Below, one piece after another: positions 1,813-18,768 of a DNA stretch of 64,000 bases. Made by a program: the position numbers and the translations under genes. Below the pieces are notes generated by a model. The model saw only the letters and a program-made list of their open reading frames with translations, searched no databases and was not told the DNA's origin. Source of the stretch: an uncultured Syntrophomonadaceae bacterium. Lineage in GTDB: Bacteria; Bacillota; Dethiobacteria; DTU022. Positions within the stretch are counted from its first letter, which is position 1, and each line of letters starts with the position of its first letter. Location of the stretch: positions 44,673 through 108,672 of the forward strand of contig CAZDKY010000003.1 of the NCBI GenBank assembly GCA_964506505.1, read 5' to 3'.

Positions 1813-3246
1813 TTACTGAATGGTAACGGCAAACCTTGAACCGTGGGGATTGACACAAATATCACATTTTTTGGCATAACCAGCAGCGCTGTAACCGGTC
1901 ATTCCACCTGCAAGATGACTAATATCTTTAAAACCATGCTGCTTTAGAATGCTTGCTGCAAGACCGGAGCGAAAACCGGTGCTGCAGATCAGTATCATGG
2001 GCAGATCGGGGTCAAGTTCCCTGTACCGGATCCGGAGATCGGGGACCGGGATATTGATCGCCCCTTCAATATGACTGTCGTTATATTCGAGGGGGGTACG
2101 GATGTCTATTAGTGCTGTCGGATTATTTCCTGTGACCAGAGCATGTAATTTTTCAGTCGAAATCAACTGCACCGATTCAGTTTCCAGGCCGGACATTACC
2201 CAGGGGGGCATGCCTCCGGCAAGGCAGCCCTTGACCCGATCCATGCCTACTCTGCGCAGCCAGAGGGCTGCTAATACTGTTTCATTGTAGTTGTCGCCAA
2301 CCAGGTATATGTCCCTATCCGTCGGTAAGACCCAGCCACCGAATGTGGGGAAATTCCCCCGAAGTTCAATATTGTATGATCCCCCAATGTTCATTCCGCC
2401 ATAAGCGGAGTAACTGCGGATATCAACTACCACGGCTTCCGAATCAGCAATCGCTTCCTTGAATTCTTGCGGCTTCAACTCTTCAAGGGGCGCAAAGGAT
2501 GAAAGCAGTCTCGGCCCGTGGCGGTTTATATCACTGCAGCGAAGGAAATGATCCGGTGCAGGCGGCATATTTTCAGTAAGCGAACGAATGAATTCCTCCC
2601 TGACCTTAATCTGCAAGGCAGGGTTATAGAGTTTTTCATAACCAAGGGTTGACAGATGTTTGGCCCCGATTGACCTGCCACAGAGAGAGCCTGCACCGTG
2701 AGCAGGGTATATTTCGCAGTGATCAGGCAGCTTCAGAAGTTTATTAAAAAGGCTGTCATAAAGTTTGCCCGCCAGTTCTTCCGCTTTATTCGGAAAGATA
2801 TCAGGTCTCCCAACATCACCGACAAAAATAAGATCACCGACAAATATACCGACAGGCTCCCTACCCCGGGAAAGATCGGTAACTGTGTAAGATACGTGTT
2901 CCGGGGTATGCCCGGGCGTTTCAATGACCTCGAGACGCATATCTTCAAGTTTGATGATGTCTCCTTCGGAAACAGGCTTATGCTGAAAGGTACACTCTGC
3001 CGCCAGAGGCGCATAGATGTCCGCTCCACTTCTGTCGGCAAGATCTATATGCCCAGAAACAAAATCGGCATGAAGGTGGGTAAGAATAATCATGGTGATT
3101 TTAACGCCCCGCCTGCGCGCCTCCTCGATGTAAATATCAACATCCCGCTGTGGATCAATTACCGCACAGCTTCGGCTGCCGATGATCATGTAAGAACTGT
3201 GAGCGATTTTGTCAGTAAAAATATGTTTAATCAGCACAGGGCACAC
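1813..3246 (-). CDS. MBL-fold metallo-hydrolase fused to two rhodanese domains (CstB-like persulfide dioxygenase / sulfurtransferase)
   Basis: HLHADFVSGH is an HxHxDH metal-binding motif. The C-terminal rhodanese domain carries the active-site loop CSTGFRSG. The gene's 5' end overlaps the stop of the upstream yloV ORF by 16 bp. Confidence 0.75.
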   Translation of the reverse strand: MCPVLIKHIFTDKIAHSSYMIIGSRSCAVIDPQRDVDIYIEEARRRGVKITMIILTHLHADFVSGHIDLADRSGADIYAPLAAECTFQHKPVSEGDIIKLEDMRLEVIETPGHTPEHVSYTVTDLSRGREPVGIFVGDLIFVGDVGRPDIFPNKAEELAGKLYDSLFNKLLKLPDHCEIYPAHGAGSLCGRSIGAKHLSTLGYEKLYNPALQIKVREEFIRSLTENMPPAPDHFLRCSDINRHGPRLLSSFAPLEELKPQEFKEAIADSEAVVVDIRSYSAYGGMNIGGSYNIELRGNFPTFGGWVLPTDRDIYLVGDNYNETVLAALWLRRVGMDRVKGCLAGGMPPWVMSGLETESVQLISTEKLHALVTGNNPTALIDIRTPLEYNDSHIEGAINIPVPDLRIRYRELDPDLPMILICSTGFRSGLAASILKQHGFKDISHLAGGMTGYSAAGYAKKCDICVNPHGSRFAVTIQ

Positions 3247-5042
3247 TCTTCCTTCCCAGTGTCAGAGACTGTGCAAATAGCTACAGCTCCACGGCCGGTA
3301 TTTATTGCAACTGCCGCTGATACCTCCGTTACATATTCCGGTTCTTTTTGAAGCAAACCGGCAATGACCTGGCTACAGTTTTCTGCCAGTTCCGCAGCTC
3401 CGGCATGAACAATGCAGTAGCTGTCGATCGGCTTTCCATTGTTGATCTTTTTAACAGCGTTAACAATTTTATTGAGGCTTGCCCTCTGGTTTACAGCAAC
3501 GGCAAAAAGCTTATCCCGGCCCTCTTCATCCAGGGTAACAAGAGGCTTGAGCTTAAAAAGGGATAATACAAAATTCTGCAGAAAGCTGAACCTGCCGCTG
3601 CGGGCAAGATATTTGAAATCAGTCATGCTGACAAACATTTTGACCCGGGATAGAAGGTTTTCAATGCTATCAACGATCTCTTCATAACTGCAACCCCGGG
3701 CAGCCATGCGGGCTGCTTTAAGAACCAGCAGGCCGTGAGCACCCGATTTTGTGTGCGAGTTGATTACATTAACAACCGTTCCATCATCGCGTAATTTCTC
3801 GGCTACTTTCTCAAATACCTCTCCGGTAGCGCTGAATTCTCTTGAAGCCGAGATCATGATCACTGATTGATAGTGTTCAGCAATAAAAGAAAGCTGATGA
3901 TAAACGGCATTAAAGGAAGGCGGGGAATAAGAAAGGTATTCAGATGCCCGACCGGCCAGATCATAAATTTGTTCAGGTTTCACTGATACTTTATCCAGGA
4001 ATGCGGATCCGTCTATGTTGATATTGATCGGGACAATGTTAATCTGATGTTCATTGATTAATTCAGGGGACAGATCTGCCGCAGAATCGGTCACCACCGC
4101 CACTTCGGCCAATCTTTTATGAACTACCTGGTACTGCCGGAGCATATCGTCAACTTTCTGGTTGGTTACGGTGCCGTACTCAAACAGACTTAAGAAAAAT
4201 TTTTCAGGCTCGTTAGTATGCATGTGAACCTTTGTTTTCTCAGATGTGCCGGCAATAATTAACGAATCCCCGAGGCTCTCCAGCGATTGTCTGAGTTGGG
4301 TGTGGTCAATAGCTGTCCCAGCTACCAATCCTTCAGAACAATAACGGTACTCAATGTTTCCCCCCATGACTGCTGCCGGTTCCGCCACTGCCGCATCAGG
4401 AGCTTCTCCATACAGCAGCGTTTTTAAATCTCCGGTGTTAATAAGTTTGGCCACTCCCTCGAGGAAAAGAACGAAACCCTGTGCACCGGCATCGACCACC
4501 GAGGCTTCTTTCAACACTTTCAATTTATCCGGTGTTTCTTTCAGGGACTGCCGGGCCCGTTCAACCGATTTAAGGAATACCCTAACAAAATCATTGGTTT
4601 CTTTAGCCAACCGTTGAAATGTATCTGCCCAATCATGAAGAACAGTGAGCATGGTCCCTTCAACAGGGTTAGAAACGGCATTATAAGCATAAGGCACCGC
4701 CTTTTGGACCGATTGGGCAAAAGACCTTGTCGAAAGGCGCTTATGATGACCTGTTTCCCTGGAAATACCGTTTATAAACGAGGCTATGATGATCCCCGAG
4801 TTCCCTCTTGCCCCATTGAGTGAAGCATCGGCAATAGAACGAAGCGTATCGCTGATGCTCCGGGAAGGTTTCACTGAATCAACAATATGGTTAAAAGTTG
4901 CCGCGAGATTGTTACCGGTGTCGCTGTCATATACCGGAAATACATTTATTTTGTTCAGCCTTGCCTTATTCAGAACGACTTCCCTGGCTCCAGCCAGAAA
5001 AGCATAATATATTCTATCGCCATTTATATAGCTGATGGACAT
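3231..5042 (-). CDS. yloV: DAK2-domain fusion protein YloV (DhaL-like N-terminus plus DegV-like C-terminus)
   Basis: 603 aa. An N-terminal Dak2 (DhaL) phosphatase-like domain is followed by a fatty-acid-binding DegV-like domain. Confidence 0.7.
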   Translation of the reverse strand: MSISYINGDRIYYAFLAGAREVVLNKARLNKINVFPVYDSDTGNNLAATFNHIVDSVKPSRSISDTLRSIADASLNGARGNSGIIIASFINGISRETGHHKRLSTRSFAQSVQKAVPYAYNAVSNPVEGTMLTVLHDWADTFQRLAKETNDFVRVFLKSVERARQSLKETPDKLKVLKEASVVDAGAQGFVLFLEGVAKLINTGDLKTLLYGEAPDAAVAEPAAVMGGNIEYRYCSEGLVAGTAIDHTQLRQSLESLGDSLIIAGTSEKTKVHMHTNEPEKFFLSLFEYGTVTNQKVDDMLRQYQVVHKRLAEVAVVTDSAADLSPELINEHQINIVPININIDGSAFLDKVSVKPEQIYDLAGRASEYLSYSPPSFNAVYHQLSFIAEHYQSVIMISASREFSATGEVFEKVAEKLRDDGTVVNVINSHTKSGAHGLLVLKAARMAARGCSYEEIVDSIENLLSRVKMFVSMTDFKYLARSGRFSFLQNFVLSLFKLKPLVTLDEEGRDKLFAVAVNQRASLNKIVNAVKKINNGKPIDSYCIVHAGAAELAENCSQVIAGLLQKEPEYVTEVSAAVAINTGRGAVAICTVSDTGKEECALC

Positions 5043-5192
5043 CTATTTCACCTGCACTTCCATACAATATTTTTAAACATACATGAATGTAAGATTCTTT
5101 ATTAAATAGCTTTAGTCCTGCTTTTTCCCGGATCATTCCTGCTGCCTGATAATCATCGCCCGGTTAACCGCTCCGGTCAATTAATCGTCCTT

Positions 5193-6665
5193 TTATTTTG
5201 AAGCCAGAACATTACGCCAGAGACGTCTCGATTCCGGCAGTAAAATAACAAGGACAGTATACACCTCCAGGCGACCGACTACCATCATAATGGAGAGCAT
5301 AACTCTGCCCACGGGAGGAATGACCTGATAGTTATGGAGAGGACCCACCCCGGCCAGGCCGGGCCCGACATTGCCAATAGTGGCCGCAACAGCAGAAAGA
5401 GAGGTTTCGAAATCCAAACCAAGCCCATTTAAAATCAGGGTGGCAAAAGCAGTCAGGGCAAAGTAAAGAAAACCGAAACCCATAATCGGGCGCAGGACTT
5501 CTTCAGATAAATTTTGTTCACCCAGCTTTATAGAAGAGATCGCCGATGGATGGACCAGGTTCGAAAGCTCACGGATGGAAAATTTAAGCATCAGCATGAC
5601 GCGAACCTGCTTTATTGCCCCGCCGGTTGAACCTCCGCAGGCTCCAATAAACATCAACCCGAGGAGCAAAACACGGGAAAAATGATGCCAGGCGTCAAAA
5701 TTGGTGGTGGCATATCCGGTCGTGGTTATTATTGAAACAACCTGGAATGATGCCAACCGCAGAGCTGTAAATATTTCTCCCTCGTACAGGTTGTAGATAT
5801 CCGCAGTGATCAGAATAATCGACAGGGCTGTAACTGCTGTATAAAAGCGCAGCTCAGGGTTCCTGTGAATGCTGAAATCCCCCCGGATTAGACGGAAATA
5901 AAGAACGAAGTTGGCCCCGGCAAGAAACATAAACGACGTAACCACTATTTCCGCGGCAGGGTTATTAAAAGCAGCTATACTGGCGGTGTAAGTGGAAAAC
6001 CCTCCTGTTGGCATTGTCGTAAAAGAATGAGTGAGAGCATCGAAAAAATCGAGCCCGCAGATCATTAACAGGATTATTTCAGACAGGGTCAGAGCTACAT
6101 AAATCAACCAGAGCCGGCGTGCTGTTTCCACCACGCGTGGTACAAGGCGTTCGGCGATGGGGCCGGGCAATTCTGCTTTAAACATAGTCATACTGCGAAA
6201 ACCAAAACGGGGCAGGATGGCCAGGAAAAGAACGATAATCCCCATGCCGCCGAGCCACTGCGTGATAGCGCGCCAGAGAAGCAGCCCCCGCGGTATATTT
6301 TCAATATCATCCAGCAGGGTTGCCCCTGTTGTGGTAAACCCGGAAACCGCTTCAAAATATGCGTCAATAAAACTCCCATTAAAGAGTCCAAAAAAGTGAA
6401 ACGGCAGAGCACCAAAAATACCGGCAACAAACCAGGCCAGTGCTACCAGGGTAAAATTTTCCACCAGACTTAATTCTTTACGGGTAGCACCCGAAAAAAG
6501 CTTAAACAAAAAAAAGCCGACTCCGGCTGTTAACAGAATCGCTTTCAAAAAAGCCATTCGGTCCGGCCCCTGCTCGCCGAGAGACCAAAAAGAGGCGATA
6601 ATCATCATCAGGGCCAGAAAGAGAAGCATGATCCCCAGCAGGTAAAAAATACGAAAACGGCTCAT
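5193..6665 (-). CDS. trkH: TrkH/KtrB family potassium uptake membrane protein
   Basis: 490-aa polytopic membrane protein with repeated selectivity-filter-like TTTG(Y) motifs. It sits next to trkA. Confidence 0.85.
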   Translation of the reverse strand: MSRFRIFYLLGIMLLFLALMMIIASFWSLGEQGPDRMAFLKAILLTAGVGFFLFKLFSGATRKELSLVENFTLVALAWFVAGIFGALPFHFFGLFNGSFIDAYFEAVSGFTTTGATLLDDIENIPRGLLLWRAITQWLGGMGIIVLFLAILPRFGFRSMTMFKAELPGPIAERLVPRVVETARRLWLIYVALTLSEIILLMICGLDFFDALTHSFTTMPTGGFSTYTASIAAFNNPAAEIVVTSFMFLAGANFVLYFRLIRGDFSIHRNPELRFYTAVTALSIILITADIYNLYEGEIFTALRLASFQVVSIITTTGYATTNFDAWHHFSRVLLLGLMFIGACGGSTGGAIKQVRVMLMLKFSIRELSNLVHPSAISSIKLGEQNLSEEVLRPIMGFGFLYFALTAFATLILNGLGLDFETSLSAVAATIGNVGPGLAGVGPLHNYQVIPPVGRVMLSIMMVVGRLEVYTVLVILLPESRRLWRNVLASK

Positions 6666-6716
6666 CTAAATCTCCACGCTCCGATCGGATCCAATTCATC
6701 AATTTGCAGGCAATTG

Positions 6717-8120
6717 TTATTCCGTGCCAGGGATGTCAACTGCTCGATGGTTACGGACTCCCCTGGTAGCGAGCGGAGCAAAATAGCGATCCAGTTTAAC
6801 GCTGACCTGGGGAACAGCAAAAATAACCAGGTGGTCTCCGGGCTGTAACTTTGTCTTTCCGCTGGGAATAATCAGTTCACCATCGCGGACAATGGAACCG
6901 ATCAGCATCCCTCGCGGAAGACGGGCTTCGGCTATTTTTTTATTAGCCACTTTGGCCGACTCAGGCAAAACCAGCTCAACGATCTCCGCCTTTTCATTCT
7001 GCAGGATTGAAAGAGCAACAACTTCTTCCCGCCTTGTGAAACGCACAATCTGGGCCGCTGCCAGTAAACGGGGATTGATTACACTGTCAATGCCGAGGGT
7101 ACTGTATACGGAAACGTACTGAGGTTTTCTCACTTCACAAATAATCTTTTCAACACCAAACTGCCTGGCCATTAAAGCTGCAACGATATTGGAACGATCG
7201 TCGCCGGTTGCAGCAATCACTGCATCGGCTGTCTCCAGATCCTCTTCCTTGAGCATGGCGATCTCGGTAACATCACCCTGTAAAACAAGGGTTTTCCTTA
7301 ATAACCTGCTGAGCTCTTCACACCGTTCAACTTTTTTCTCAATTATTTTCACAAAGAAAGGCTGGTTGCTCTCTTCCAGCATTTGCGCCAGCATGAGGGA
7401 AATCATCCCTCCGCCCAGGATGGTTACCTGGCGGATTAAGCAGCTTTCGTGATGCAGCAGGGTGCACAGATTTTTCAATCCTCCACTGCTGCCGAGCAGG
7501 TAAATTTTATCCCCTGGATTAATAATGTCACTCCCACCGGGGACAACGAACTCACCTTTGTTATTGCTAATCCCAACAATAATGGCCTCCTGATCTTGCA
7601 TCTGTATATTTTTTATAGGCACACCTGCTATGCCAGCTTCCTTTCCTACGGTAACTCCGAGCATCATCACTTTACCCCGGTTAAAATATTCTATTTCGCT
7701 GGCTGCCGGGAAATGAAGCATCCTCGAAATCTCCATTGCGGCCACTTTTTCGGGGTTAATAACAAGGTCAATGCCGAGCTGCTTTGGTGTTAACACTGAA
7801 GTCTGATCGACATATCCTGAATTGCGAATGCGGCAAACAGTCAGTGGAACATCATATTTTTTGGCCAGCATACAGGCAATAATATTAATCTCATCATGCT
7901 GGGTCACCGCGATCAGCATATCGGCATTTTTAATATCCGCTTTTTCCAGGACAGAAGCGTTTGCTCCATTATCCACTATGACCATCACATCGAGGGCTTC
8001 CTGAAAGCGGCGGGCTTTGCTTTCGCTTTTTTCGATAACCACAACATCCTGGTGTTTCTCAGATAGATTGCGGCCCAGCTCATAACCAACACCGCCACCG
8101 CCTACAACAATTATACGCAT
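6717..8120 (-). CDS. trkA: Trk system potassium uptake protein TrkA (two RCK/NAD-binding domains)
   Basis: MRIIVVGGGGVGYELGRNL Rossmann motif. The second RCK repeat begins ILGGGMISL. Confidence 0.9.
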   Translation of the reverse strand: MRIIVVGGGGVGYELGRNLSEKHQDVVVIEKSESKARRFQEALDVMVIVDNGANASVLEKADIKNADMLIAVTQHDEINIIACMLAKKYDVPLTVCRIRNSGYVDQTSVLTPKQLGIDLVINPEKVAAMEISRMLHFPAASEIEYFNRGKVMMLGVTVGKEAGIAGVPIKNIQMQDQEAIIVGISNNKGEFVVPGGSDIINPGDKIYLLGSSGGLKNLCTLLHHESCLIRQVTILGGGMISLMLAQMLEESNQPFFVKIIEKKVERCEELSRLLRKTLVLQGDVTEIAMLKEEDLETADAVIAATGDDRSNIVAALMARQFGVEKIICEVRKPQYVSVYSTLGIDSVINPRLLAAAQIVRFTRREEVVALSILQNEKAEIVELVLPESAKVANKKIAEARLPRGMLIGSIVRDGELIIPSGKTKLQPGDHLVIFAVPQVSVKLDRYFAPLATRGVRNHRAVDIPGTE

Positions 8121-8338
8121 TCCATCAAATCCACCTTCCCAGAGCAGCAGAAACAGATATTCTCATTCATATTAACCGAGAAAATATCCCAATGCAAATA
8201 TTATTGACAGCCGAAACCTGTTTTCATTCTTCAATCTGAAAGGGACGATTAAAAACCGTCCCTTTTCGATTCGATCAATTCGGCTACATTATATAATAGA
8301 GGATCCTTTTTGTTAAGGTTTTTTTATTAAATATCAAA

Positions 8339-8362
8339 ATCAATAAATTACAGTTGTCAATA
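8339..8362. repeat. Direct repeat copy 1 (atcaataaattacagttgtcaata)
   Basis: A 24-bp element that is almost identical to the one at 8453-8477. Confidence 0.7.
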
Positions 8363-8372
8363 ACATGTTGAA

Positions 8373-8433
8373 ATGTCACTTGACCCGGCTTTCCATAGGT
8401 GACATATTATCATGATAATTAATAAGGTGACAT
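8373..8433. promoter_or_regulatory. Cluster of GTGACAT half-sites (atgtcac ... aggtgacat ... aggtgacat)
   Basis: Inverted pair ATGTCAC (8373-8379) / GTGACAT (8399-8405), plus a second direct AGGTGACAT copy at 8425-8433. Candidate repressor-binding half-sites upstream of the MMPL operon promoter. Confidence 0.35.
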
Positions 8434-8452
8434 TATCACGTAATAACCACAC

Positions 8453-8477
8453 ATCAATAAATTACAGTTTGACAATA
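8453..8477. repeat. Direct repeat copy 2 (atcaataaattacagtttgacaata), overlapping the -35 box
   Basis: Near-identical copy of 8339-8362. It contains the TTGACA -35 hexamer. Confidence 0.7.
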
Positions 8478-8497
8478 CTTCGGCAGAGCATTATAAT
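8469..8497 (+). promoter_or_regulatory. Consensus sigma-A-type promoter for the MMPL operon
   Basis: TTGACA (8469-8474), 17-nt spacer, TATAAT (8492-8497). The MMPL start codon at 8580 lies about 83 nt downstream. Confidence 0.6.
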
Positions 8498-8499
8498 GC

Positions 8500-8537
8500 A
8501 AACAAGTAATTAAAACAGTTGTTTAAATTACTTGTTT
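8500..8537. promoter_or_regulatory. 38-bp near-perfect palindrome, a candidate TetR operator or 5'-UTR hairpin
   Basis: Left arm aaacaagtaattaaaac, centre agtt, right arm gtttaaattacttgttt. The 17-bp arms differ at one position. It sits immediately downstream of the -10 box and upstream of the ribosome-binding site. Confidence 0.5.
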
Positions 8538-8579
8538 AAAATAAACGTTAGATCCATAAATGTGCCGGAGAAGTAACCC

Positions 8580-10664
8580 ATGCAGAAGTTGAGCCGTCTT
8601 ATCGTTAAATACAGGAAATTAATAATCGCCGGCTACATACTTTTACTGATCCCGGCTATTATCGGCTACCTGACCACCGGAGTTAATTACGACCTGCTTT
8701 CCTATATGCCGGACAACCTGAATTCAAGGCAGGGGGAAGAGGTCCTGGAAGAAGAATTTTCTCTATCCGGACTCGGTTTGATGATGGTCAGGGATAAAAA
8801 AAATTTTGAAATTGAGCTTTTAATCAAAGAGCTGGAAAATATTGAGGGTATCAATAAAATTTCCTGGCTTGGCAGTTACAGTGATATATATGTGCCCAAA
8901 GAATTTATTGATCCTGTAATTAGGGAGAGATTTATAACAGATGACACTGTATTGCTGCAAATTCAGTTTTCAGAAAACGCCCGCAGTGGAGAAACTGTTG
9001 CCGCCGTTCTGGAAATAACCGATATTACAGAAGCGGATGATGATCTTTATTTCGGCGGCGAACCGGCTATTTTAACCGATATGCAGATGGCAATCGATGA
9101 TGAGATGCTCCAGTATACAAGCGTTGCCGTAATTATGATCCTGTTGGTCTTGACCATGTCAACTTCTCTTTATCTGGATCCGATCCTGTTCCTTGCCGCT
9201 GTTGGAGTAGCCATTGTCATCAACATGGGAAGCAACTTTTTCCAGGGAGAGATCTCCTTCCTGACCGCTTCTATTGCCGCGGTGATGCAGCTCGGCATAT
9301 CACTGGACTACGCCATATTTCTGATGCACCGGTTTGAAGAAGAAAAGGCAAAAGGGATTGGCATTGAAGAAGCGATGGTCAATACAATCAGTAAAACTGC
9401 TGTTACCATCGCCTCAAGCGCCCTGACTACAATTGGCGGTTTTGTCGCCCTGATGGTGATGGAAAATGGAATCGGCGGAGACATGGGCCTGGTCCTGGGT
9501 AAAGGGATTGTAATCAGCCTGATCGTCACCCTGACATTGCTGCCCGGCCTGATCCTGACATTTCACCCTTTCAGCAGCCGCTACCGACACCGGGTCCTTT
9601 TACCATCTTTTCAAACAACGGCGAAGCTGCTGCCTAAATTCCGATCGGTGATATTGATTGTATTTATCATTATTGCTGTGCCGGCCTATCTTGCTCAGGA
9701 TAATGTAGAATACTATTATTCTAATGTTCATTATTTACCCCGCAATTCAAAAGCTGCAGCAGCTACTGACGAAATCATGGAAGAATACGGTGCTGTAGAT
9801 GTAGCCTATTTAATTACTCCCGACGAAGGCCGGAAAAGGGAGAGCGATCTTGTTGACCTGCTGAGCAAAGTTGAACACGTTGATTCTGTAGTTTCTGTTT
9901 CAGAACAGGTTGACCCCGCTGTGCCGGATATGATGATCCCCGAAGAGATGATCAGCGAGTTCCAGGGGGGAGGCTACCGCAACATTATGGTATTCCTGTC
10001 ACCTGAGGCAGAAGAAAAAGAAATTTTCATTACCATCGATCGCATCAGAGAAATAGCCGGCTCCCTGCACGATGAATATTATGTTGCAGGCCAACCTGCC
10101 CAGACGAGGGACATGGCAACCCTGTCCAAAGTTGATGCCCGCAATGTAGCCCTCTTTTCTGTTATTGCCATAGGCCTGATCATTGCAATCAGCTTCCGAT
10201 CATTGTCACTTCCCCTTCTGCTGGTTCTGGCTGTTAAACTGGCTATCTGGATCAATCTCAGTTTTTTATATTACCAGGGAGAACCGGTATCCTCACTGAC
10301 CCCTATCATAATCGGGTCCATCCAGCTGGGGGCAACTGTTGATTACGCCATCCTGTTTACGCTGAGATATCGCGAAAACCTGGGCATAATGGGGGAACGA
10401 ATAAAAGCAGCCGGACAGACCATAAAGGATACCGGCCGATCTATCCTCACCAGCGCCCTGATCCTTTTTGCAGCAACCTTCAGTATCTCCCTGATCGCCG
10501 GCATAAAAACAACCAGGGAAATGACTTTACTCATCGGCCGGGGGGCATTGATCAGCATGGTAGTTATATTTTCCTTGCTGCCTGCTCTGCTGATAATTTT
10601 TGAAAAGGTGATCGAGCGTACTACAATCGGCTGGCCGGTTTGCTCTGACAGAGAGAAAAAGTAA
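8580..10664 (+). CDS. MMPL-family (RND superfamily) membrane transporter, YdfJ-like
   Basis: 694 aa with two approximately 6-TM bundles, each followed by an extracytoplasmic domain, the typical MMPL topology. GGAGAAG ribosome-binding site. Confidence 0.8.
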   Translation: MQKLSRLIVKYRKLIIAGYILLLIPAIIGYLTTGVNYDLLSYMPDNLNSRQGEEVLEEEFSLSGLGLMMVRDKKNFEIELLIKELENIEGINKISWLGSYSDIYVPKEFIDPVIRERFITDDTVLLQIQFSENARSGETVAAVLEITDITEADDDLYFGGEPAILTDMQMAIDDEMLQYTSVAVIMILLVLTMSTSLYLDPILFLAAVGVAIVINMGSNFFQGEISFLTASIAAVMQLGISLDYAIFLMHRFEEEKAKGIGIEEAMVNTISKTAVTIASSALTTIGGFVALMVMENGIGGDMGLVLGKGIVISLIVTLTLLPGLILTFHPFSSRYRHRVLLPSFQTTAKLLPKFRSVILIVFIIIAVPAYLAQDNVEYYYSNVHYLPRNSKAAAATDEIMEEYGAVDVAYLITPDEGRKRESDLVDLLSKVEHVDSVVSVSEQVDPAVPDMMIPEEMISEFQGGGYRNIMVFLSPEAEEKEIFITIDRIREIAGSLHDEYYVAGQPAQTRDMATLSKVDARNVALFSVIAIGLIIAISFRSLSLPLLLVLAVKLAIWINLSFLYYQGEPVSSLTPIIIGSIQLGATVDYAILFTLRYRENLGIMGERIKAAGQTIKDTGRSILTSALILFAATFSISLIAGIKTTREMTLLIGRGALISMVVIFSLLPALLIIFEKVIERTTIGWPVCSDREKK

Positions 10665-12679: not shown

Positions 12680-13261
12680 GTGGCGAAAGAGAAGACCGAC
12701 ACCCGATCCAAGATCCTTGAAGCCGCGGCCGAGATAATCGGCAGGGAAAGAAACCTGAACTTTACAATCAGGGAAGTGGCCAACCGGGCCAAAGTGAACA
12801 TTGCTTCAATAAATTATTACTTCCGTTCGAAAGAAAATTTGCTCGGTGAGATAGAAATGCTGCTCATGGAAAGAACCCGCCTGATTTATTCCTACCTGAG
12901 CGATGAATCTCTCAGCCCGCGTGACAGACTGATCGGCTGGGCAGACGAACTTATTAAACACCTGATTGAGTACCCCGGCATTATTTATCTTATTGGGACC
13001 AAAATCCTGGAAAGAGAGAGCACTTTTATCGGCCCGTATCTGGATTTACTGGAAACAGATCTCGCCCCGCTGGTGAAAAATATTACCGGCCTTAACCAGA
13101 AAAACTTAATTAACTTTAAAGTCCTCCAGCTTATTTCAGGTGTGGTTTATCCGGTTTTAATCTTTTCCAGCGCCGAAAATCACGGGGATATTGATATTAG
13201 AAAAAGTAATATGCGCCTTGCATATATAAATTCACTGATTGACAGCATCAAAGCGGCCTGA
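12680..13261 (+). CDS. TetR/AcrR family transcriptional regulator
   Basis: N-terminal HTH region SKILEAAAEIIGRERNLNFTIREVANRAKVNIASINYYFRSKENLL. GTG start with an ACGAGGTGA ribosome-binding site. Last gene of the MMPL operon. Confidence 0.85.
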   Translation: MAKEKTDTRSKILEAAAEIIGRERNLNFTIREVANRAKVNIASINYYFRSKENLLGEIEMLLMERTRLIYSYLSDESLSPRDRLIGWADELIKHLIEYPGIIYLIGTKILERESTFIGPYLDLLETDLAPLVKNITGLNQKNLINFKVLQLISGVVYPVLIFSSAENHGDIDIRKSNMRLAYINSLIDSIKAA

Positions 13262-13278: not shown

Positions 13279-13470
13279 AAAAACCGCGTTCGTATTTTGG
13301 CTTTGCCGCACAGGGTAAAAACGGAGATTTGCGTTTGTGAAATAGTGGATGCGCTCGAAGAGTGTCAGTACAAAGTTTCCCGCAACCTGAAGGTGCTTCA
13401 GTAAGCCGGCCTGATTGTCAGCCGAAAAAAAGGCAAATGCAATTATTACCGCTTCAGTGAGACGCACGTT
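13279..13470 (+). pseudogene. Disrupted ArsR/SmtB-family metalloregulator remnant
   Basis: My hand translation reads ..NRVRILALPHRVKTEICVCEIVDALEECQYKVSRNLKVLQ*AGLIVSRKKGKCNYYRF... This contains the ArsR HTH and CVC metal-site signature. There is no start codon and an in-frame TAA falls at 13402-13404. Confidence 0.5.
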
Positions 13471-13812
13471 CCTTTCCAGAAAAAATTACTGCAAGCTATC
13501 CGTTATATTTCTTCAGATACAATAAACGAGGATTTCATACACCTGCGTAAACACCTTTTCATCCGGGTAAATAATGAATTCGTGATTGGAACCAGCAAGA
13601 ACAATGATCAATTGTAAGCAGGTTATCAACTGTAACAACAGCAAAAAAGTTGGAGCATAAGAGTTAAATCAAGATTTTAAAAATACGGATCACCGAACGG
13701 GTTACAGTCTTCTATATTATTTTCATCGGTTGTGAAACTGGAAAGGAGGTAAATCCGATGATTAGTATAAGTATGGTCTGGCAAAGAGCTACCTGGAAGA
13801 ACTCTGCCAGTA

Positions 13813-18676: not shown

Positions 18677-18768
18677 GTTAATCCCTCGTAATATTAATTC
18701 GCCGTTATAAAACACTCCCCTGCCTGAACAGGGGAGTGTTTGTTTCCATCCACTTTTAGGGGGCATTA

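Follow-up and report, generated by a model that had tools for sequence, protein, structure and literature searches.

The exporter operon and the palindrome in its leader

The 64-kb stretch of DNA analyzed here (the window), from an uncultured Syntrophomonadaceae-like member of the Bacillota, carries a three-gene operon encoding an MMPL-family RND transporter, an uncharacterized 658-residue protein and a TetR-family regulator. A 38-bp near-perfect palindrome lies in the leader of this operon and is considered here as a candidate TetR operator (Table 1). The genes are separated by 22 nt (MMPL/658-residue protein) and 16 nt (658-residue protein/TetR), with a separate ribosome-binding site for each downstream gene. 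Matches of the MMPL protein to MMPL/HAE3/HpnN-like subfamily models of NCBIfam all fell under the equivalog cut-off. The 658-residue protein was assigned to no family in Pfam, NCBIfam or PDB searches and displays, in addition to its N-terminal hydrophobic segment, long helical or coiled-coil-like stretches. Because it follows MMPL in every locus and gene order described below, it is probably an obligate partner of the exporter.

The palindrome begins 2 bp past the -10 box of a consensus promoter and ends ahead of the MMPL ribosome-binding site, precisely the placement that had been claimed for it from the sequence. Transcription is predicted by standard sigma-70 geometry to start 7-8 nt past the -10 box; if so, the transcript lacks the initial 4-5 nt of the palindrome. 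A repeat finder resolved the element (AAACAAGTAATTAAAACAGTTGTTTAAATTACTTGTTT) into two 18-nt arms (8500-8517 and 8520-8537) with 94% complementarity and a 2-nt centre, and 17 of its 19 base pairs are strict Watson-Crick partners. An earlier description with 17-nt arms, one mismatch and an AGTT centre refers to the same element and is confirmed by this pairing. Internally, the palindrome consists of a perfect central unit, AAAC-N4-GTTT, flanked by mirror-image half-units.

Table 1. Coordinates of the promoter, array units and genes of the exporter operon within the 64-kb window.
Feature	Position	Strand	Basis
-35 hexamer, TTGACA	8469-8474	+	12/12 consensus promoter, 17-nt spacer
-10 hexamer, TATAAT	8492-8497	+	12/12 consensus promoter with TTGACA
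38-bp near-perfect palindrome, core of proposed TetR operator	8500-8537		17/19 pairs, shuffles, matrix score
Unit 1, AAAC-aagt-AATT, half-consensus, overlapping predicted start site	8500-8511		
Predicted transcription start	8504-8505	+	standard sigma-70 geometry
Unit 2, AAAC-agtt-GTTT, perfect core at dyad centre	8513-8524		
Right arm plus flank, best match in the window to HlyIIR operator arm ATATTTAAAATTCTTGTTTAAA	8519-8540	+	18/22, ungapped
Unit 3, AATT-actt-GTTT, mirror of unit 1	8526-8537		
Unit 4, AAAT-aaac-GTTA, weak; counterpart of an AAAT-N4-GTTT unit conserved in most orthologues	8539-8550		consensus tTTaAAaT.t.tgTTt at array positions 36-51
Ribosome-binding site of MMPL gene, GGAG	8567-8570	+	
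MMPL-family RND transporter, 694 residues, first gene, ATG at 8580	8580-10664	+	Pfam MMPL, 4.9e-56
Uncharacterized 658-residue protein, N-terminal hydrophobic segment	10687-12663	+	second gene, always after MMPL
TetR-family regulator, 193 residues, last gene, proposed repressor	12680-13261	+	Pfam TetR_N, 6.3e-10

No other palindrome in the window combines 17-nt arms with one mismatch or fewer; the runners-up are two G+C-rich, terminator-like hairpins near 18710 and 42394. An equal palindrome appeared in none of 200 first-order Markov shuffles of the window and in 3 of 200 64-kb sequences generated at 32% G+C, the intergenic composition. These counts argue that the palindrome did not arise by chance. 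A fortuitous A+T-rich palindrome or a mobile-element remnant (a miniature inverted-repeat transposable element or transposon end) devoid of a regulatory role is therefore scarcely credible, even though the intergenic region is just 32% G+C and a 114-bp lineage-specific insertion lies immediately upstream. The window holds no second copy of the palindrome, and a mobile element was rejected as its source because neither the palindrome nor the 114-bp segment has a further copy in the window or in any of the related loci.

Conservation of the array and its linkage to TetR

A genome and metagenome search with the MMPL protein gathered 26 loci from metagenome-assembled genomes of Bacillota/Syntrophomonadaceae type. 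One of these (L011) encodes an MMPL protein 95% identical to that of the window, and the others range from 52 to 71%. Upstream DNA is included in 24 loci (MMPL identity 52-95%), 23 of which display a TTGACA-17-TAnnnT promoter, followed 1-2 bp later by an array related to the palindrome, with a -35 hexamer that is TTGACA or a one-off variant at a 17-nt spacing. Anchored on an invariant AAAC, with array position 1 corresponding to window position 8500, the ungapped consensus reads AAACA.a.G.TTtAAAcA..tGTTTaAAtcatat.tTTaAAaT.t.tgTTt. This comprises 12-bp AAAC-N4-GTTT-like units at positions 1-12, 14-25, 27-38 and 40-51, in a 13-bp register. The AAAC at positions 1-4 is invariant among the 21 aligned operators, and the GTTT at positions 35-38 is common only to the window, L011, L027-type loci and the Bacillus hlyII operator. 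Position and register are kept among loci with as little as 50-70% protein identity, which further disfavors a chance or remnant origin, and this degree of divergence excludes recent transfer of one identical DNA segment.

A dyad scan of 20 loci reached its maximum (0.72) at array position 19.5 (8518/8519), the exact centre of the palindrome, with lesser peaks at 6.5-bp intervals. Under the dyad of the window, 73.5% of cells in the 21 operators pair, versus 28-47% with the partner column slid. The window is the most symmetric member of the family, with 17 of 19 pairs where other operators have 9-16, and it differs from L011 within the palindrome by only two substitutions, both in the 4-nt spacer of the central unit. 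Thus, to judge from these alignments, the conserved object is an array of about 51 bp built of 12-bp units, of which the 38-bp palindrome is the most symmetric version, that of this lineage. A separate feature of the collection is the L003 MMPL frame (4723-6804; 67% identical and full length), which contains two in-frame stop codons that could reflect a pseudogene, sequencing error or recoding.

A position matrix was built from array positions 1-29 with the window and L011 excluded. It scored 33.5 bits at 8500-8528 on the plus strand and 32.9 bits at 8537-8509 on the minus strand; the next unrelated match in the window scored 3.1 bits. Over 285 kb of loci, matches of at least 12 bits were confined to MMPL leaders, the L019 TetR promoter and the Bacillus hlyII operator.

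The MMPL/658-residue protein/TetR cassette is kept wherever contigs reach, while flanking genes vary between loci, and a TetR gene is present in every array-bearing locus whose contig extends far enough. A search with the TetR protein returned about 96 homologues at 40-99% identity, followed by a gap down to 31% or less. The TetR gene is found upstream of MMPL in L019, L027, L028, L031 and L032, and is divergent in L029. In the TetR-upstream loci, MMPL retains its own TTGACA-17 promoter and array, and the array of L027 (AAAC-gtgt-ATAT / AAAC-atac-GTTT / AATT-atac-GTTT) reproduces the three-unit layout of the window. The TetR gene of L019 has a separate TTGCCA-17-TATAAT promoter followed directly by TGTTTTAAACATCAGTAT, which scores 14.3 bits on the operator matrix, and a terminator-like hairpin lies between the TetR gene and the MMPL promoter/operator (these features at L019 4216-4262 and 4905-4930). 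This weaker copy of the motif is likely an autoregulatory site.

The AlphaFold2 model of the window TetR (predicted local distance difference test score 88) is all-helical, with nine helices, and retrieved 38 PDB TetR-family matches at E<=0.001 in Foldseek. The helix-turn-helix, above all recognition helix N40-K51 (NIASINYYFRSK), is nearly invariant across an alignment of 64 sequences (59 family members, the window protein and four outliers at 23-29%); a conserved half-site is therefore expected. In a PDB sequence search, the TetR matched HlyIIR of Bacillus cereus best (1.4e-7; 30% identity over residues 1-123). Proposed DNA contacts of HlyIIR are V41, A42, S45 and Y46, plus N40 and K51 (PMC1828608, PMC3717773). 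Their counterparts in the window protein are N40, I41, A42, N45, Y46 and K51, four of six being identical (N40, A42, Y46 and K51) and V41 to I being conservative. Together with the operator comparison below, these matches make the window TetR a distant HlyIIR relative, apparently with the same mode of reading DNA. Residue 43 (S versus A), compared with operator bases in two clades, yielded no clean base-specific correlation.

Linkage also bears on whether the array might instead serve a regulator encoded elsewhere, such as a global or A+T-tract-binding protein, with the operon TetR acting on other targets. Nucleoid-associated proteins often bind TTTAAA-rich DNA, and the evidence that ties the operon TetR to the site is indirect. 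We nonetheless find such a regulator improbable: within the window and the 285 kb of loci the array occurs only at the MMPL promoter of the cassette and at one TetR promoter, it moves with the cassette into unrelated neighborhoods and gene orders, a TetR gene accompanies it wherever the contig allows, and the site resembles the known operator of the closest characterized relative of this TetR.

A putative operator for the operon-encoded TetR

We propose that the palindrome is the core of an operator for the operon's own TetR, which would repress the exporter operon, and assign this reading a probability of roughly 78%. The original prediction of such an operator, larger than a single-dimer site, was favored by every in silico test applied: the footprint, cassette linkage, a single-copy target, the invariant recognition helix and the likeness to HlyIIR. 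In the model that we infer, which extends from the transcription start to TetR binding, repression, stoichiometry and ligand, the array starting 2 bp past the -10 box would cover the predicted start and the first 35-50 or so transcribed bases. Bound TetR would prevent RNA polymerase from forming or leaving the open complex at this strong promoter, and would thereby hold the MMPL exporter, its 658-residue partner and the repressor itself at low levels. With the repressor encoded by the last gene of the operon, the circuit would be negatively autoregulated. A small-molecule ligand is predicted to modulate binding, most likely by releasing the repressor; it is probably a substrate of the exporter, hydrophobic or lipid-like in nature.

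Several observations weigh against this proposal. Column shuffles gave 71.9% pairing versus the observed 73.5%, so family-wide pairing derives mostly from conserved symmetric columns and not from covariation. L021 (52% MMPL identity), the single exception among loci with upstream sequence, has no matrix match, and its contig ends ahead of any possible TetR gene. L029 and L030, whose TetR proteins are 43% identical to that of the window, also lack an operator detectable by the matrix, and MMPL there is rearranged and split. Similarity to HlyIIR is modest, being 30% over the N-terminal 123 residues only; BLAST detected no similarity between the C-terminal domains, and several TetR structures stand above HlyIIR in the Foldseek ranking (19th and lower), though its identity (22-24%) is the highest of the matches. 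The window TetR is thus not a HlyIIR orthologue. The position of the hlyII operator, upstream of its promoter and centered about 48 bp upstream (PMC1828608), contrasts with that of the window operator, which begins 2 bp past the -10 box, and the mechanism of repression need not match that of HlyIIR. Glucose 6-phosphate reportedly promotes operator binding by HlyIIR instead of ending it (PMC3566180), so a ligand might likewise strengthen binding here. Finally, adjacent units spaced by 13 bp overlap, so the array is compatible with several patterns of occupancy.

The lack of an operator in L029 and L030 was treated as locus degradation rather than counter-evidence because MMPL is split and N-terminally truncated and L030 has a transposase-like neighbor. 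In L029 (4737-6687, divergent order), MMPL occupies two open reading frames and is missing about 60 N-terminal residues. In L030 (1567-3153), on another contig, an identical TetR gene adjoins a UPF0236 transposase-like gene. This arrangement suggests a cassette broken up by mobile DNA.

The original prediction also raised the alternative of a hairpin in the 5' untranslated region, and its structural half stands: for the 38-nt sequence, the folding energy is -13 kcal/mol (z-score -4.66). Counted from the predicted start, a 13-bp hairpin is left at the extreme 5' end of the MMPL mRNA, where it could stabilize the message, pause or attenuate transcription, or be bound by an RNA-binding factor. 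G-U-type substitutions within the family (seven T-G at array positions 17/22 and five G-T at 9/30) also fit an element acting as RNA. A functional RNA role fared poorly. Most orthologous leaders lack a stable or shared fold, with z near 0 and values below -1.4 only in the window, L011, L014, L015 and L018. Rfam gave no credible match in 7900-8900 at E<=1 and none overlapping 8500-8537. Moreover, the invariant AAAC block starts 1-2 bp past the -10 box, ahead of every plausible start site, and in Bacillus a motif of this type works upstream of the hlyII promoter, as DNA that is not transcribed (PMC1828608). The palindrome is not an intrinsic terminator because its stem is A+U-rich, with G-C in 3 of 17 pairs, and AAAAUAAACG (AAAATAAACG) comes after it instead of a U-tract; a terminator scan of the window does not list it. 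Collectively, we judge an RNA element to be still less probable than a regulator encoded elsewhere, although the hairpin may have a local side-effect on mRNA stability.

For the TetR operator that we favor, analogy with HlyIIR makes two dimers the most likely occupancy, with each arm (about 8497-8518 and 8519-8540) taking one. A single central dimer or more than two dimers are possible alternatives. A broader interpretation treats the array as a lattice in which AAAC/GTTT tetrads and TTTAAA boxes keep strictly to the 13-bp register, its 3-5 units covering about 29-51 bp from the -10 box toward the ribosome-binding site. HlyIIR-like TetR proteins would bind this lattice in one of several registers or in more than one at a time, perhaps with over two dimers per site as for EthR, and the symmetry seen in the window would add a 5'-terminal mRNA hairpin with a second, post-transcriptional effect. 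We hold this interpretation to be unlikely; were it true, the odd long operator of HlyIIR would be a trait of a wider, undescribed TetR subfamily mostly controlling MMPL exporters in anaerobic Bacillota.

The TetR operator reading provides a concrete, testable regulatory model for an uncharacterized MMPL/658-residue protein/TetR exporter cassette of uncultured Syntrophomonadaceae-like Bacillota. It further shows that the HlyIIR operator, for all its unusual length, has counterparts: its 38-bp layout and 13-bp register recur on exporter promoters that distant relatives would regulate. Synthetic gene circuits already make use of HlyIIR (PMC7536230, PMC7058928). Such repressor-operator pairs serve as compact and orthogonal parts, and new members with defined operators are of practical use. 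The arrangement of promoter and operator is otherwise ordinary, and the palindrome is most likely a well-supported but ordinary regulatory element.

Divergent trkA and trkH genes lie upstream of the operon. The trkA-proximal part of the intergenic region contains a hairpin, GGGACG-attaaaaac-CGTCCC followed by TTTTCG (8241-8270), that is also present in L011 and resembles a plus-strand terminator, yet no plus-strand gene precedes it. With a promoter-like TTAACA-17-TATAAT on the minus strand (8316-8288), the trkA leader would be about 170 nt long. The 114-bp segment at 8356-8469, immediately upstream of the -35 box and missing from L011, may have been inserted here or deleted in L011 and is bounded by perfect 17-bp direct repeats (ATCAATAAATTACAGTT) at 8339-8355 and 8453-8469. 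It holds three copies of GTGACAT/ATGTCAC (8373, 8399 and 8427) and a perfect 14-bp palindrome, ATTATCATGATAAT (8406-8419). The latter was considered as a Fur box, as suggested by Fur control of hlyII, and dropped when the 7-1-7 consensus TGATAATNATTATCA gave no match at three mismatches or fewer. Downstream of the TetR gene, an ArsR-like frame on the plus strand (about 13330-13620) is broken by an in-frame TAA (…VSRNLKVLQ*AGLIVSRKKGKCNYY…) and has a weak Pfam HTH_5 match under the cut-off (E = 0.007); it is probably a decayed regulator gene.

Comparison with characterized TetR-family operators

The HlyIIR operator is a perfect inverted repeat of 44 bp, to which the protein binds as two dimers with protection of about 50 bp (PMC1828608, PMC3717773). 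Its published 22-bp operator arm is ATATTTAAAATTCTTGTTTAAA (PMC7536230, PMC7058928), for which the second-best match in the window, after the right arm of the palindrome and its flank, is 8506-8527. Aligned without gaps, the canonical hlyII operator is identical to window 8497-8540 at 33 of 44 positions. In a Bacillus record, the natural operator precedes annotated hlyII/hlyIIR and lies about 200 bp ahead of the hlyII start codon. Its arms are in the order TTTAAACAA...|...TTGTTTAAA, from which it follows that it shares the 38-bp AAAC-to-GTTT span and its orientation with the window. The matrix built from relatives of the window recognized the hlyII operator, with scores of 21.8 and 18.1 bits, and nothing else in two 6-kb Bacillus loci. 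Common to both operators is the three-unit layout [AAAC-N4-AwTT]-N-[AAAy-N4-rTTT]-N-[AAwT-N4-GTTT], and both sites are too long for one dimer. They differ in the central unit, a perfect AAAC-N4-GTTT in the window and AAAT-N4-ATTT in hlyII. They also differ in target, HlyIIR controlling a pore-forming toxin gene from a separate transcription unit whereas the window regulator is the last gene of the MMPL exporter operon that it would control. Rodikova et al. 2007 reportedly found that one half of the hlyII repeat is the minimal site.

Two Bacillus loci were recorded alongside this comparison. L033 (Bacillus sp. N5-665, NZ_CP093325.1, a 5.5-Mb replicon filed as a plasmid in PLSDB) carries a natural variant of the hlyII operator, TTTAAACAACAATTTTAAATACATATTTAAAATTGTTGTTTAAA, at 3001-3044, with hlyIIR downstream of hlyII. 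L034, from a 502-kb Bacillus albus plasmid, has a similar repeat at 3001-3044, upstream of an unannotated open reading frame starting MKKVNGIAKYV.

Among other TetR-family operators, EthR is reported to bind the ethA operator of Mycobacterium tuberculosis, of about 55 bp, as a cooperative octamer (title of Engohang-Ndong et al. 2004, cited by bioRxiv 10.1101/459685). Likened by description only, this operator and the window array are both unusually long (about 50 bp) and overlap the promoter.

The PsrA operators of Pseudomonas have the core C/GAAAC-N2-4-GTTTG/C, and the operator of the psrA gene itself in P. putida spans -18 to +20 of its promoter (PMC13104628). The central unit of the window, AAAC-AGTT-GTTT, shares its core with GAAAC-N4-GTTTC, but A flanks it on both sides, not G/C, and it belongs to an A/T-flanked multi-unit array where PsrA has a single-dimer site. 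At 35.1 bits against the NCBIfam PsrA model (cut-off 300), the window TetR is not a PsrA orthologue.

For position and logic, the best analogue is QacR and its IR1 operator at qacA of Staphylococcus aureus, a long inverted repeat just past the -10 box that overlaps the start site, binds two dimers and is relieved by pump substrates (PMC3617543). The window likewise has a large inverted repeat immediately past the -10 box that overlaps the predicted start site of an efflux gene. Differences are that qacR is divergently transcribed, whereas the window TetR gene is last in the same operon, that the QacR pump is a major-facilitator transporter and not an MMPL/RND protein, and that the sequence of IR1 is different. 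QacR was not among the 29 PDB sequence matches of the window TetR, a search in which no specific sequence relationship was detectable. Regulation of the exporter operon would thus follow the logic of QacR/IR1 on an operator of HlyIIR type, built around a PsrA-like AAAC-N4-GTTT core.

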